This document shows, one piece after another, positions 18,306 through 44,220 of a stretch of 64,000 nucleotides of DNA. The notes below the pieces were generated by a model. It was not told the DNA's origin. It saw nothing but the letters and a program-made list of their open reading frames with translations, and ran no database searches. Source of the DNA: Escherichia phage VEc20; the sequence record MN022785.1; one strand, 5' to 3'. Each line of letters starts with the position of its first letter. The stretch's first letter is position 1. Position numbers and translations under genes: made by a program.

Positions 18306-18563
18306 TTATTTTAAAACTTCTGCGTAATCACATGTTACAAACTGTTTCTCTAGCTTAACGATCTTACGAAAATACCTTTTACACTGACGAATCTGTCGCT
18401 TCGTAGGACGTACAGCAAACTTAATAAATTCAACTCGACCAAATGGAGGACTTTCTTCTGCTGGAATATCTAACACCAATTCCCACGTATCTGAAATAAG
18501 TGCTTTGAATTGCGTATTTTTCCTGACGTTATACGGAGTAGGTTTAAATAAAACAATATGCAT
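18306..18563 (-). CDS. hypothetical protein (61.4 position)
   Basis: ORF track 18306..18605; start trimmed to internal ATG to avoid overlap with dmd. Confidence 0.45.
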   Translation of the reverse strand: MHIVLFKPTPYNVRKNTQFKALISDTWELVLDIPAEESPPFGRVEFIKFAVRPTKRQIRQCKRYFRKIVKLEKQFVTCDYAEVLK

Positions 18564-18564
18564 A

Positions 18565-18747
18565 TTATCCTCGGCAATCCACTTCACACACTTTCTTGTC
18601 ATCAATGAAAGCTTTAACTAATGCTTTATTAACTTCGGCATATTGAGTAGTAGCCCATTGAACGTCATCTTTCATCATTGTAGTTTCTTTAGTAAACATG
18701 CTTTCATTCTTAAACCACCCCATAAAAACTACCTTTACCAATTCCAT
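18565..18747 (-). CDS. dmd: Dmd (61.5), inhibitor of host RnlA/LsoA toxins
   Basis: 60-aa ORF immediately downstream of gene 41; size and position match. Confidence 0.7.
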   Translation of the reverse strand: MELVKVVFMGWFKNESMFTKETTMMKDDVQWATTQYAEVNKALVKAFIDDKKVCEVDCRG

Positions 18748-40213: not shown

Positions 40214-40684
40214 TTAATCATGTTTCCACACCCCATCGGTATTTGACCAAAGCCGCTGATTATCTGATCCTCTCCACAGCTTTTTGGTCGGAAGATTTTT
40301 CTCATACTTCCCATCAATAATAACATCAACATATTTAAGCATTTCTAGTTGTTTAATATCTTCAAACTTATATCCTGTCCACAACCAAATGCTTTTATTT
40401 GGATAAAGATTTTTTACTGTTTGAACAATGCAATGAATAACATCTCGATTATCAGGATAGAGAGGGTCTCCTCCAGTTATAGTTAATCCTTCTATATAAT
40501 CATTATTCAAACATTCAATTAATTGTTCTAGTGTTTCACCAGTGAATGGAATACCATTTCTAGCATTCCATGTTGATTTATTATAACACCCTTCGCATTT
40601 ATGCAAACAACCTGTAACGAAAAGAACGACCCTGCAACCAGGGCCATTCACAAAATCGCAAGGATAAAATCTATCATAATTCAT
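40214..40684 (-). CDS. nrdG: anaerobic ribonucleotide reductase activating protein NrdG (radical SAM)
   Basis: 156-aa ORF; Cys cluster CLHKCEGC. Confidence 0.85.
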   Translation of the reverse strand: MNYDRFYPCDFVNGPGCRVVLFVTGCLHKCEGCYNKSTWNARNGIPFTGETLEQLIECLNNDYIEGLTITGGDPLYPDNRDVIHCIVQTVKNLYPNKSIWLWTGYKFEDIKQLEMLKYVDVIIDGKYEKNLPTKKLWRGSDNQRLWSNTDGVWKHD

Positions 40685-42498
40685 TGATGCTTAACCCTAT
40701 GCATGATTTCTTTATTTTTGCCGAGATTAAATCCGCGTTCGTTCGGATTTCCCAAATAACCACACGTTCTTCTTATTGTATTCATCTTTTTAGGATCAGT
40801 TTCTCCACAAATAGAACAAACAAATCCGTTTTCAGTAGGAGTCATTTCATGGGTACTTCCGCATGTAAAACATTTATCCACTGGCATATTAACACCAAAA
40901 TAATCTAAATGTTGTGCAGCATAATCCCATACGGCCTCAAGACCTTTCAAGTTATTTTTCATATCAGGAAGTTCAACATAAGAAATGTGACCACCTGTCG
41001 CAATGAAATGATATGGCGCTTCACGAGAAATCTTTTCAAACGGAGTAATATTTTCTTCTACTGAGACATGGAAACTGTTAGTGTACCAGCCTTTATCGGT
41101 AACATCTTTTACGCTTCCATATTTTTCTGTATCGAGTTTACAGAAGCGATAACAAAGGTTTTCAGCAGGAGTCGAATATAAACTAAAAGCAAATCCGGTT
41201 CTTTCAGTCCACTGTTTAAGATGAGCATTCATTTTAGTTAAAATTTCTCGTCCAATATCACGACCGACAAGAATATTCAATTCGTGAATACCAATGTATC
41301 CTAAAGACACTGAACTTCTACCGTTTTTAAATAACTCAATTATATCGTCATCAGGTTTAAGACGAACCCCAAATGCACCTTCTTGGTAAAGAATAGGAGC
41401 AACAGTAGCTTTAACTCCTTTTAAGGAACTAATTCTACACATCAAAGCTTCAAAACATAAATCCATTCGTTCATTGAACAATTCAACAAATTTCTGTTCA
41501 TTGAACTGTGTTCCAATATAAGAATCTAACGCGATGCGAGGAAGATTCAGTGTTACAACACCAAGATTATTACGTCCATCAAGAATTTCATTACCAGTCG
41601 AATCTTTCCATACGCCCAAGAAACTACGGCAACCCATTGGAGAAACAGGAATAGATGAGCCGGTGATAGCTTTATTGTTCTTAGCTGAAATAATATCAGG
41701 ATACATCCTTTTGCTTGCACACTCTAAAGCAAGCTGCTTAATATCATAGTTCGGATCGTCTTTATAAAGATTAACGCCTTCTTCAACGAACATAACAAGC
41801 TTAGGGAAAATAGGAGTTATCCCATCACGACCGAGACCTTTAATACGATTTTTCAGAATTGCTTTCTGAATCATTCGTTCAGTCCAGTCAGTTCCCGTAC
41901 CAAATGTAATTGTTACAAAAGGAGTCTGTCCGTTTGAACTAAAGAGAGTATTTACTTCATATTCATAAGCTTGGAATGCATCGTATACATCTTTTTCTGT
42001 TTTAGATTGAGCATAATTCAACGCATCAGCGATTTGCCATTTTTCTGCATCCTCAATATGTTTTGCATAGGTGCGTTTAACATAAGGAGAAAGTACTTTA
42101 TCGACATTAGCAAATGTAGTTCCGCCATATTGGTGAGAAGCAACCTGTGCAGTAATTTGTGCCATAATTGCAGTAGCAACACCGATTGATTTAGGAGTTT
42201 CAATCTGTGCATTACCAAGCTTAAATCCGTTTTCAAGCATTCCTTTTAAATCTACTAAACAACAATTAGTAAATGGAAGAGCAGGGGAATAATCAATATC
42301 ATGGAAATGAATAATTCCGCTTTCATGCGCTTTCATAATAAAAGACGGGACCATATTTTTGGCAATGTGTTTAGACACAATACCAGCCATAAGGTCCCGT
42401 TGAGTTGGAAAAACACGAGAATCTTTATTAGCATTCTCGTTTAAAAGGTCTTTATTAGTTTTATGAATCAATCCTTCAATTTCTTTTTCAATTGTCAT
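40681..42498 (-). CDS. nrdD: anaerobic ribonucleoside-triphosphate reductase NrdD, intron-less
   Basis: 605-aa continuous ORF; C-terminal zinc ribbon CFTCGS...CSICG and glycyl-radical region. Confidence 0.9.
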   Translation of the reverse strand: MTIEKEIEGLIHKTNKDLLNENANKDSRVFPTQRDLMAGIVSKHIAKNMVPSFIMKAHESGIIHFHDIDYSPALPFTNCCLVDLKGMLENGFKLGNAQIETPKSIGVATAIMAQITAQVASHQYGGTTFANVDKVLSPYVKRTYAKHIEDAEKWQIADALNYAQSKTEKDVYDAFQAYEYEVNTLFSSNGQTPFVTITFGTGTDWTERMIQKAILKNRIKGLGRDGITPIFPKLVMFVEEGVNLYKDDPNYDIKQLALECASKRMYPDIISAKNNKAITGSSIPVSPMGCRSFLGVWKDSTGNEILDGRNNLGVVTLNLPRIALDSYIGTQFNEQKFVELFNERMDLCFEALMCRISSLKGVKATVAPILYQEGAFGVRLKPDDDIIELFKNGRSSVSLGYIGIHELNILVGRDIGREILTKMNAHLKQWTERTGFAFSLYSTPAENLCYRFCKLDTEKYGSVKDVTDKGWYTNSFHVSVEENITPFEKISREAPYHFIATGGHISYVELPDMKNNLKGLEAVWDYAAQHLDYFGVNMPVDKCFTCGSTHEMTPTENGFVCSICGETDPKKMNTIRRTCGYLGNPNERGFNLGKNKEIMHRVKHQ

Positions 42499-42968
42499 TT
42501 TAAACTCTTTCTAAGCTGCTTCTTAAATGAAGCTATTAACTGTGTTTTGGTGTCAGATTCATTATATTCAAATCCTCTTTGAAGCATCTCGGCCATCATT
42601 TCCTCTTTTCCTAAACGAGAAAATTCCTTTGATTTATCTCCAACAAAGTTAGGGTGAATATTATTTTGGGTGTAATCGGATTTTAAATAAGTAAGTAAAT
42701 TTTCTAACCATTCAAGATAATCAACACCTTGTCCCTTTAAGCCAGAACGATTAAATTTGTGCTTCATTTGACCTTCTGCAGCATTGCAGAGATTACAAAG
42801 CAATCCACGTACCTTTCCTGCTTTTGGTCCATTTAATTCATGGTCATGGTCGAGGTGATTAGCTTGAACATCAGGATTTAGTTCTCGTTGGCAAATTAAG
42901 CATTTACCGTTTTGTGCATTATAAAATTTTTGTTTTTCTTCTTTGTATAATTTGCCAGTCAATAACAT
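42495..42968 (-). CDS. 49: endonuclease VII gp49 (Holliday junction resolvase)
   Basis: 157-aa ORF; zinc-binding cysteines; size matches T4 gp49. Confidence 0.85.
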   Translation of the reverse strand: MLLTGKLYKEEKQKFYNAQNGKCLICQRELNPDVQANHLDHDHELNGPKAGKVRGLLCNLCNAAEGQMKHKFNRSGLKGQGVDYLEWLENLLTYLKSDYTQNNIHPNFVGDKSKEFSRLGKEEMMAEMLQRGFEYNESDTKTQLIASFKKQLRKSLK

Positions 42969-43010
42969 AATAAAACCCTTACCTTAAATAGATAAGGGTA
43001 TTTATTATTT

Positions 43011-43057
43011 TTAAGTATTGTAAAACATTCGATGCAATCGTTTATACTGTCGAATCA
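43011..43057. repeat. imperfect direct repeat copy 1 (about 46 bp); copy 2 at 43224..43269
   Basis: about 40 of 46 positions identical between copies. Confidence 0.7.
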
Positions 43058-43187
43058 TCTTTTTAGTAGGACGAGAATAGGTTCCTACGCAAGTGGTCAT
43101 ATGAGGGTCCGTAGAATGTCCTTTAATAAAAAGTTTCCAAACCTTACCGCCATTTAACTTTTCAGTATAAACCAATTCGGTTTTCAT
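43011..43187 (-). CDS. hypothetical small protein (58 aa) whose C-terminal 14 residues duplicate the pin C-terminus
   Basis: hand-translated; ends IRQYKRLHRMFYNT vs pin IRQYKRLHQMFYNT. Confidence 0.35.
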   Translation of the reverse strand: MKTELVYTEKLNGGKVWKLFIKGHSTDPHMTTCVGTYSRPTKKMIRQYKRLHRMFYNT

Positions 43188-43199
43188 TAAAATGTCCTG

Positions 43200-43298
43200 T
43201 CAGAAAAAGAATTTTGAGTTTTTTCAAGTATTGTAAAACATTTGATGCAATCGCTTATATTGCCGAATCTTTTGGTCAGAAAAAGAAATTTGAGTTTC
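43200..43298. repeat. duplicated pin 3'-end segment: 23-bp B-repeat (43200-43222, 43276-43298) flanking A-repeat copy 2
   Basis: tcagaaaaagaattttgagtttt vs tcagaaaaagaaatttgagtttc. Confidence 0.65.
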
Positions 43299-43709
43299 AA
43301 GCCATTCAATGTACTCTGCGGCAGCTTGCATCAGGTTACCTTCATAGCCATCGTTATTTTCTTGTGCAGCTAATTTAGCTAATGCGTATGAAATACGTTC
43401 ACCTTGAAAATCGGCTTTAGGCTTCTGAACAACTTGATTAGTTCTCTCTACAACTTCCTCGATTTCACCATTTTCAACGGATTCAGTATTCCACAAACAC
43501 CAATACGTAATTGGCTTATCATAGATGTTAATAATCTTTCCGTCGGAAAGTTCAATTTCAACAATTCCAGTGTCAGGCTCTATATCATCTTCACATTCTT
43601 TTGCAAGTTCACGAACTTTAAAGACAGTACCTGCACTAAGTTCCGGCCAGTAATTACATAGCCCTGTATCAATACGATTAATTCTAAACCACTTATCTAC
43701 TGTAATCAT
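43224..43709 (-). CDS. pin: Pin, inhibitor of host Lon protease
   Basis: start taken as MITVDKWF (161 aa); ORF track gives TTG-start 167-aa version. Confidence 0.7.
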   Translation of the reverse strand: MITVDKWFRINRIDTGLCNYWPELSAGTVFKVRELAKECEDDIEPDTGIVEIELSDGKIINIYDKPITYWCLWNTESVENGEIEEVVERTNQVVQKPKADFQGERISYALAKLAAQENNDGYEGNLMQAAAEYIEWLETQISFSDQKIRQYKRLHQMFYNT

Positions 43710-43828
43710 GTCCCATCTCCATATCAATTAAGTCATTTATCGTTGGTTCATTATATACTGTTTCTTCATCAGTGTAAACCGGTTCTTCCGGCTCTGGCTC
43801 TACAGTTTCCCATCTAGCCGCCCACCAA

Positions 43829-44002
43829 GGTTTAACCCCGAAGCTTATTAAGTTCTTCATAATCAATCCAGGATTCTAATCCTGATGGCAAATCAGATTC
43901 AATTTCCCAAAGAAGTTCTTCAATTTTATGAAGACGATCTAGTTCTTCGGCTGGAATAGTAACCATTGACGGAGTTCTTGATACATTAATATCGTAAATC
44001 AT
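43829..44002 (-). CDS. hypothetical small protein (57 aa)
   Basis: hand-translated MIYDINVSRTPSMVTIPAEELDRLHKIEELLWEI... Confidence 0.3.
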
Positions 44003-44004
44003 AT

Positions 44005-44220
44005 TTACCCCAATTTAACCATACAATCGCCGTATTTCCACTTAGAAATAGACTTTTCACCGTTAGAATAATAAACTTCGAGTTTAGCACGATTATTTTT
44101 AATTTGAATAACCTTGGCTGTCATCAAAGTTCCATACCCATAATAAACTGCAACTTCATCACCTACATATACCGCGCTTCCGCGGTAATCATGAATATAG
44201 TCAGTTCCTTCGAGCATCAT
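44005..44220 (-). CDS. hypothetical protein
   Basis: 71-aa ORF. Confidence 0.5.
   Translation of the reverse strand: MMLEGTDYIHDYRGSAVYVGDEVAVYYGYGTLMTAKVIQIKNNRAKLEVYYSNGEKSISKWKYGDCMVKLG

Follow-up and report, generated by a model that had tools for sequence, protein, structure and literature searches.

A recombination scar between pin and a DUF7279 gene upstream of gene 49 in a T4-like phage

Genes, repeats and signals between gene 49 and pin

The window analyzed here is a stretch of 64,000 nucleotides from Escherichia phage VEc20 (MN022785.1), a T4-like genome whose nearest records are Tequatrovirus phages with 97-99% identity. The region of interest corresponds to the nrdD / gene 49 / pin / 49.x / nrdC segment and all of its genes are located on the minus strand. 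Two direct repeats, called R1 and R2 below, are situated between gene 49 and pin. The following features could be assigned:

40681-42498, minus strand: nrdD (ORF list)
42495-42968, minus strand: gene 49, endonuclease VII, 157 aa (ORF list; annotated as endonuclease VII in T4 and relatives)
42975-42999, minus strand: gene 49 leader hairpin, 10 pairs, then UUUUAUUAUG (terminator/hairpin scan and RNA fold)
42999-43006, minus strand: candidate late promoter AATAAATA, a 7/8 match to the T4 late promoter TATAAATA (read from the sequence)
43011-43187, minus strand: ORF58, a complete DUF7279 gene of 58 codons plus stop (PF23945, phrog_3272)
43011-43056, minus strand: R1A, native 46-nt copy, the last 14 codons and stop of ORF58 (predicted C-terminal helix)
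43187-43221, minus strand: apparent remnant of the ancestral unfused pin 3' end, 35 nt (alignment with form B phages, see below)
43199-43221, minus strand: R2A, within the remnant
43216-43229, minus strand: recombination junction, ACTTGAAAA followed by AACTC on the coding strand
43224-43269, minus strand: R1B, grafted 46-nt copy, Pin codons 148-161 plus stop, from DUF7279 codons 45-58
43224-43709, minus strand: pin, the fused T4-type allele of 161 codons (PF10465, 161.3 bits)
43275-43297, minus strand: R2B, in-place 23-nt copy, Pin codons about 139-146 (ETQISFSD)

Gene 49 is the constant downstream neighbor in every form of the locus. Its leader hairpin segment, which includes the gene 49 ribosome-binding site and is annotated as "terminator" in OE5505, G8 and G2285, is the same in all forms and marks the right-hand boundary of every rearrangement. 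Sequestration of ribosome-binding sites in T4 late genes has been reviewed, with the gene 49 paper as reference 60 of that review, although its gene list prints '39', apparently meaning gene 49 (PMC2988022). The late-promoter-like AATAAATA lies directly past the stop codon of the small gene and, like the hairpin, is intact in every form; the homologous TATAAATA of Mosigvirus SA35RD is annotated as a late promoter.

Both flanks of the interval differ from T4. In the window nrdD is a single unbroken 605-codon ORF, while in the T4 record its two exons are separated by the intron endonuclease I-TevII. On the other side, the pin-nrdC interval is another variable patch: its genes (43693-44220, minus strand) encode proteins of 57, 56 and 71 aa and differ in number and size from T4 49.1, 49.2 and 49.3 (51, 106 and 102 aa). 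Two related records, fFiEco06 and SG1, list the 56-aa ORF as 'antitoxin from a toxin-antitoxin system', and a strong sigma-70/early-promoter-like site (TTTACA-17-TATAAT, 11/12, 43778-43750, minus strand) sits in a 49.1-like ORF immediately upstream of pin.

An earlier reading made from the sequence alone (the sequence-only reading) had claimed two direct repeats here, and its coordinates are correct to within 1 nt. According to the repeat finder, R1 (43011-43056 versus 43224-43269) is identical at 41 of 46 positions with a start-to-start spacing of 213, and R2 (43199-43221 versus 43275-43297) at 22 of 23 with a spacing of 76. Chance similarity, which would have disposed of the claim, was modeled by simulating the entire 64-kb window 30 times as a first-order Markov chain with the same dinucleotide transition frequencies. 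The best simulated 46-nt direct match within 500 bp reached 29-33 identities, and a chance origin of the 41/46 match of R1 is thus ruled out. The 58-aa ORF noted in the same reading is present at 43011-43187 on the minus strand. It was said to end with the same 14 residues as Pin; the two tails are indeed near-identical, however, the last 14 residues of ORF58 (IRQYKRLHRMFYNT) and Pin (IRQYKRLHQMFYNT) agree at 13 positions and differ by R versus Q at one.

The small gene and the C-terminus of Pin

ORF58 scores 62.7 bits against the Pfam model of DUF7279 (PF23945, gathering cut-off 24.5), with residues 7-56 aligned to model positions 1-53, and matches phrog_3272 over residues 1-58 (3.4e-34). Its reading frame is intact in all 13 other loci extracted, the small gene being intact in six of six form A and four of four form B loci examined, and dN/dS against 8 non-identical homologues is 0.08-0.20. 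Conservation of the ORF, left as a question by the sequence-only reading, is thereby established, and these values argue for a real gene under purifying selection and for a functional product. A DUF7279 gene is found upstream of gene 49 in three genera, namely Tequatrovirus, Mosigvirus and Dhakavirus. ORF58 is thus an old, conserved phage gene that is both resident and ancestral at this locus.

In an alignment of 10 homologues, the best-conserved segment of DUF7279 is the C-terminal RPTKKMIRQYKRLHRxFY. This tail is present in every DUF7279 homologue examined. A profile search of 1.8 billion representatives returned only nine hits, three of them clear relatives or fragments of the small gene and one a more remote protein of 54 aa in which the tail motif is preserved, while the long repetitive proteins among the nine are probably spurious. 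AlphaFold2 predicts three β-strands followed by a C-terminal helix (residues 42-56), and the predicted helix would correspond to the tail; one of the five models is confident (best pLDDT 81.6, the other four about 53). A Foldseek comparison of the ORF58 model with the PDB gave nothing below E = 0.27, and a literature search found no paper that mentions DUF7279.

The same genome encodes a second DUF7279 protein, the homologue of T4 gp61.4 (18306-18605, minus strand; PF23945, 1.1e-20). T4 gp61.4 belongs to the same Pfam family as ORF58 and shares the motif RPTKRxIRQxKR with it, but is longer (85-99 aa), unlinked and has no part in the repeats. The gp61.4 homologue lies immediately downstream of and overlaps dmd (18565-18747, minus strand), which encodes the antitoxin against RnlA/LsoA. 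As ORF58 lies beside pin, DUF7279 genes adjoin two host-interference/anti-defence genes.

Pin of the window scores 161.3 bits against PF10465 (PinA peptidase inhibitor I24; cut-off 27) over residues 4-141 and, as a family member, is a putative Lon inhibitor. It is 96-97% identical to other 161-aa Pin proteins (Pin161). T4 PinA (UniProt P07068), which ends in SFSDRMIQQYKRLHQMFYNT, has the same fused 161-aa form and is known to bind Lon and block degradation (PMC8835725). Residues 147-161 of Pin fall outside PF10465 and outside phrog_2167, which covers residues 1-146. Instead, they match phrog_3272 positions 44-58, in agreement with a six-frame profile scan of the window; the Pfam and PHROG models of DUF7279 extend through the tail whereas the Pin models stop at 141-146. 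These matches indicate that it is Pin that is the chimera, consisting of a PinA Lon-inhibitor domain and a 15-residue tail derived from DUF7279.

Pin tails deviate from DUF7279 at positions that never vary in that family, with R53Q in every tail, H52N in those of the RB6 group and R46Q in that of T4, so the constraint on the tail has been altered or relaxed. About 140 genomes manage without a tail on Pin, and the tail may be a neutral appendage. The structure model of Pin is poor (pLDDT 59), with the tail as a low-confidence continuation of the last helix, and no solved structure related to Pin by sequence was found. Comparison of the tail with the SulA sul20 degron (sequence from PMC8087443) gave KIHSNLYH versus RLHRMFYN as the best ungapped match, which is not significant (BLOSUM62 score 17-18, shuffle p = 0.06-0.15).

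Forms of the locus in Tequatrovirus and related genera

Comparing the 49-pin junction across T-even genomes, as the sequence-only reading had proposed, resolved four forms. All four are common among sequenced phages:

Form A (113 records, counted as matches to 151 nt across the junction at 96-100% identity): window, fFiEco06, PYps11T, pSe_SNUABM_01, SG1, AV119; fused pin, junction ACTTGAAAA followed by AACTCAAAATTC, remnant (..TQNSFSDRTF or ..KAF, then stop; TAATG) and complete small gene
Form B (73 records, as forms A and B together number 186): OE5505, GEP001, CE1, KIT03; Pin of 148 aa ending in SFSDRAF, its stop overlapping the start of the small gene (TAATG)
Form C (about 240 records, estimated from evenly spaced samples of the hit list): T4, T2, RB6, RB18, G8; Pin of 161 aa, small gene absent
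Form D (about 70 records, estimated likewise): R5505, JoYop, ime09; Pin148, small gene cleanly deleted (169 nt, 3-nt microhomology)

In total, about 500 Tequatrovirus records were considered. About 30 loci were read base by base, and the remaining records were counted by BLAST coverage classes. Estimated from these classes, tail-less Pin148, with or without the small gene, accounts for about 29% of sequenced Tequatrovirus. In more than 20 phages, the only annotated neighbors between gene 49 and pin are Pin, a hypothetical protein and endonuclease VII.

The T4 interval shares with the window the same pin gene, the fused 161-aa architecture and the gene 49 leader, but has a single copy of the repeated unit, lacks the DUF7279 gene and is 214 bp shorter; the window has, in addition, an intact small gene and what is left of the former pin 3' end. 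Form B phages (vB_EcoM_OE5505, KIT03, CE1, GEP001) encode the same DUF7279 gene at the same position. In contrast to the window, their Pin is tail-less and repeats are absent, and the sequence corresponding to the remnant is the genuine pin 3' end (CTCAAATTTCTTTTTCTGACCGAGCATTTTAATG). The small gene of form B is translationally coupled through TAATG with a weak GAG upstream, not AGGA.

The remnant itself reads ..(E)TQNSFSDRTF and its TAA stop overlaps the ATG of ORF58 as TAATG. Pin of form A stops 36 nt upstream of this ATG. The remnant is now the leader of ORF58, with an AGGA Shine-Dalgarno sequence at 43195-43198, 7 nt before the ATG. Former Pin codons for R-A (CGAGC) have become AGGAC in the window group or AAGGC in SG1 and AV119, i.e. 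3 substitutions in 5 nt. These changes are confined to remnants (0 of 13 Pin148 clusters, 0 of 7 form B/D loci); all 13 Pin148 clusters end in SFSDRA[F/L] while remnants end in RTF or KAF. This pattern fits dead coding sequence recruited as a ribosome-binding site, and the gained Shine-Dalgarno sequence would be further evidence that the small gene is expressed.

Outside Tequatrovirus, Pin homologues are tail-less, ending in ..SD(R/K/E)(A/G)F or ..ERRLS, and the more distant ones in ..SKSF or ..DRGF. Downstream of Mosigvirus Pin, which ends in ..EYLERRLS, lies a separate DUF7279 gene of 59 aa or, after a clean 193-nt deletion, none. In Dhakavirus, a 57-aa C-terminal half of Pin ending in ..FSDEAF precedes the DUF7279 gene; the two overlap directly as TAATG in one contig, an overlap shared with Tequatrovirus form B, while an extra ORF intervenes in others. 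The only tail on Pin found outside Tequatrovirus is that of one Mosigvirus contig, where it was fused independently. With Pin tail-less elsewhere and the tail present in all DUF7279 homologues examined, form B represents the ancestral state and the Pin tail is derived.

Dhakavirus PinA is split and permuted (JS10, L004 1703-2360; L006-L010). JS10 encodes a 57-aa ORF matching PF10465 positions 88-136, then a 100-aa ORF matching positions 3-74, then DUF7279 and gene 49. Further contigs of this genus have an unrelated ORF of 89-90 aa or no ORF at all in the middle position, or lack the Pin half. All are linked by overlapping stop and start codons.

In Mosigvirus, DUF7279 paralogues flank pin on both sides (L011 SA35RD 2311-2481; L029 1329-1499). 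Two metagenome contigs (L030/L031 1501-2076) carry a 1-nt deletion that removes the stop of the upstream paralogue and yields a 191-aa DUF7279-Pin fusion; one of the two has very low coverage and could conceivably reflect a sequencing error. The independently fused Mosigvirus tail (L029 1501-1926, a single Logan contig) attaches the C-terminal 9 residues of the DUF7279 protein encoded downstream to Pin (..EYLERR-FHRDFYNVY), directly followed by gene 49, through a 168-nt deletion at a 6-nt ACGTTT microhomology. Clean losses of the small gene also occurred independently in two genera, by 169 nt at AAT in form D (L003, L027, L028) and by 193 nt at a 1-nt match in Mosigvirus (L013, L014), both sparing the gene 49 late promoter and leader. 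The recurring 169-, 193- and 168-nt deletions indicate that such a mechanism operates at this locus. Overall, Pin and DUF7279 genes appear to have fused at least three times, which hints at a shared function; adjacency alone could equally account for it.

Origin and meaning of the tandem junctions

We consider the window to contain a fused and an ancestral pin/DUF7279 junction in succession and explain it in four steps, with a probability of roughly 0.8. First, as the outgroups show, ancestral Pin had 148 codons ending in SFSDRAF, with its stop overlapping (TAATG) the start of a 58-codon DUF7279 gene that ended shortly before the late promoter and leader hairpin of gene 49. Second, alignment shows a 137-nt deletion that took the two final codons of pin together with its stop and codons 1-43 of DUF7279, so that Pin codon 147 is continued in frame by DUF7279 codons 44-58; the outcome is the 161-aa T4 Pin, with the small gene lost. 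Third, an unequal, microhomology-mediated crossover during mixed infection may have joined a fused allele (..ACTTGAAAA), broken just after the pin stop, to the inside of pin in an ancestral allele (AACTCAAA..). The product would be a fused pin and an intact DUF7279 gene, with 35 nt of the former pin end left between them as a dead remnant. Fourth, the small gene would have lost its translational coupling to pin and the remnant acquired a canonical Shine-Dalgarno sequence (AGGA or AAGG, 7-8 nt upstream), so that both proteins could be made.

The deletion can be read directly from form B and T4, whose alignment shows one 137-nt gap: TCTGACCGA is followed in form B by a segment running from GCATTTTAATG to ACTAAAAAG, which T4 lacks, and then by ATGATTC. 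Given the +2 offset of the small gene from the pin frame, loss of 137 nt puts DUF7279 codons 44-58 in the pin frame. The spacings of the repeats differ by the same length (213 - 76 = 137), which indicates that form A contains a fused and an unfused copy of one unit in tandem. The 76-nt unit (R2 plus R1) occurs twice, the second time interrupted by exactly 137 nt, as expected from an unequal crossover. Fused Pins are all 161 aa long, the junction varies by point changes only (DRM-IQQ, DQM-IRQ, DQK-IRQ) and all fused tails carry Q at the invariant R53 of DUF7279 (6 form A loci, 5 form C loci, 6 Pin161 clusters), which together argue for one fusion event. A second, independent junction (SDQK-IRQ versus SDRM-IQQ in T4) was considered and ruled out on the same grounds of length, position and substitution type.

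The form A junction is identical in six of six form A phages examined and thus appears to be of single origin. It can be read as fused ..ACAATACTTGAAAA-TAATAAATA joined to ancestral GGCTTGA-AACTCAAA.. through an A-rich microhomology of 2 to 7 nt. A simple crossover in CTTGAAA predicts 3-4 A's, however, the junction carries 6, so a 2-nt microhomology or later slippage is needed. The simplest route would, in our view, be an unequal crossover during co-infection by a form C and a form B phage, as it takes one step from two abundant alleles. It should be noted that tail haplotypes are common to forms A and C (SG1 and RB6; window and Sf21), and the flanking sequence therefore gives the event no direction.

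The second and third steps may also have occurred in another order, as the same structure could be reached by tandem duplication followed by deletion. In this unlikely but serviceable alternative, a 213-nt unit consisting of the pin end and DUF7279 was duplicated in tandem in an ancestral allele, a 137-nt in-frame deletion in the upstream copy gave form A, and the T4 type arose later through recombination between the R1 copies; form B could be regenerated by recombination between the R2 copies. The fused Pin would then have arisen without the small gene ever being lost, and the junction ACTTGAAAA-AACTC is obtained equally well from two ancestral alleles. Moreover, if R1B and R1A of an SG1-type form A recombined within the 21 nt that they share (ATGTTTTACAATACTTGAAAA), the product would be exactly form C of the RB6 type. 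The cost is one extra step to form A and two to T4, and no locus with two complete DUF7279 copies occurs among the loci read. In addition, form C phages with an R1B tail identical to that of the window retain a TGA stop and its flank, whereas R1A of the window type has TAA; such form C phages are thus not simple deletion products of window-type form A.

The sequence-only reading took the small ORF for a cassette inserted into the pin 3' end with duplication of its target, or for a chimeric gene created by partial duplication of pin. Within the window alone, the order repeat, ORF, repeat does resemble an insertion and the locus is indeed a presence/absence polymorphism. A recombination footprint at the pin 3' end and the chimeric nature of one of the two genes both stand, however, the polarity is reversed. 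An inserted cassette is contradicted by the constant position of the DUF7279 gene upstream of gene 49 in three genera and by the absence of terminal inverted repeats and of integrase, transposase or homing endonuclease genes. A tail taken from Pin fails because Mosigvirus and Dhakavirus combine a tailed small gene with a tail-less Pin and because the tail belongs to the DUF7279 family model, which Pin residues 147-161 match, and to unlinked gp61.4. This reading is therefore highly improbable.

As the reason for conservation of the repeats, a nucleic-acid signal that would be required in two copies upstream of gene 49, such as an RNA structure, a processing site or a promoter element, is scarcely conceivable. 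R1 does lie immediately ahead of the late promoter and leader hairpin of gene 49, but of the four coding differences that separate R1A from R1B three are synonymous, the fifth difference swaps one stop codon for another, the segment varies synonymously across genera while the peptide is preserved, and forms C and D function with one copy or none. The sole stable structure of the interval is the gene 49 leader hairpin (fold z-score of the interval only -1.84), and Rfam gave no family at threshold, its two sub-threshold hits both lying on this hairpin.

Three kinds of mobile or modular element were also rejected. A transposable element or IS with target-site duplication finds no inverted repeats at the boundaries, the sole inner ORF is the 58-aa DUF7279 gene and both repeats (46 and 23 nt) consist of coding sequence. 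A cassette driven by a homing endonuclease finds no endonuclease ORF of that kind between gene 49 and pin. PeSL cassettes of T4-type phages are variable segments bounded by repeated early promoter and stem-loop modules; neither a sigma-70-like promoter nor a hairpin is present in or beside R1 or R2, the only hairpin being that of the gene 49 leader.

The mechanism favored here, i.e. in-frame deletion and short-homology unequal recombination with loss and gain of a small accessory gene in a T4-type variable region, is ordinary. Gene fusion by deletion between neighbors (Rosetta-stone type) and short-homology illegitimate recombination and duplication in T4 are familiar processes, and the locus resembles them in its in-frame deletion, its junction homology of 0-6 nt and an unequal crossover leading to a partial tandem duplication. 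It differs from them in that only the last helix of the downstream gene was kept, the lost gene was restored beside the fusion and both junctions are found in one genome. The locus is thus an ordinary recombination scar with a modest evolutionary twist; what is new, if minor, is the origin of the PinA C-terminus, the reconstruction of four co-circulating alleles and the link between Pin and DUF7279.

Among phage inhibitors of Lon, PinA serves as the reference, and all published biochemistry was done on the T4 protein. Our analysis indicates that its last 15 residues do not belong to the Pin family but correspond to the C-terminal helix of a neighboring gene product. The repeated fusions with Pin provide a first functional lead for DUF7279, a family to which T4 gp61.4 beside dmd also belongs. 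It is a rather doubtful proposition that DUF7279 proteins act as partners of Pin, for example as modules that are directed at Lon or bind Pin, with a basic-aromatic C-terminal helix contacting Lon or Pin, and that selection therefore grafted them, in whole or in part, onto Pin at least three times (the 15-residue tail in Tequatrovirus, the 9-residue tail in Mosigvirus and the full-length N-terminal fusion in Mosigvirus). If true, the biochemically studied PinA would be a two-component inhibitor merged into a single chain, and both versions would be present in form A phages. Apart from this, the locus is a textbook case of deletion, fusion and unequal recombination in a heavily recombining phage population. 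Phages with tail-less Pin148, with or without DUF7279, represent natural variants for testing the contributions of the tail and of DUF7279.
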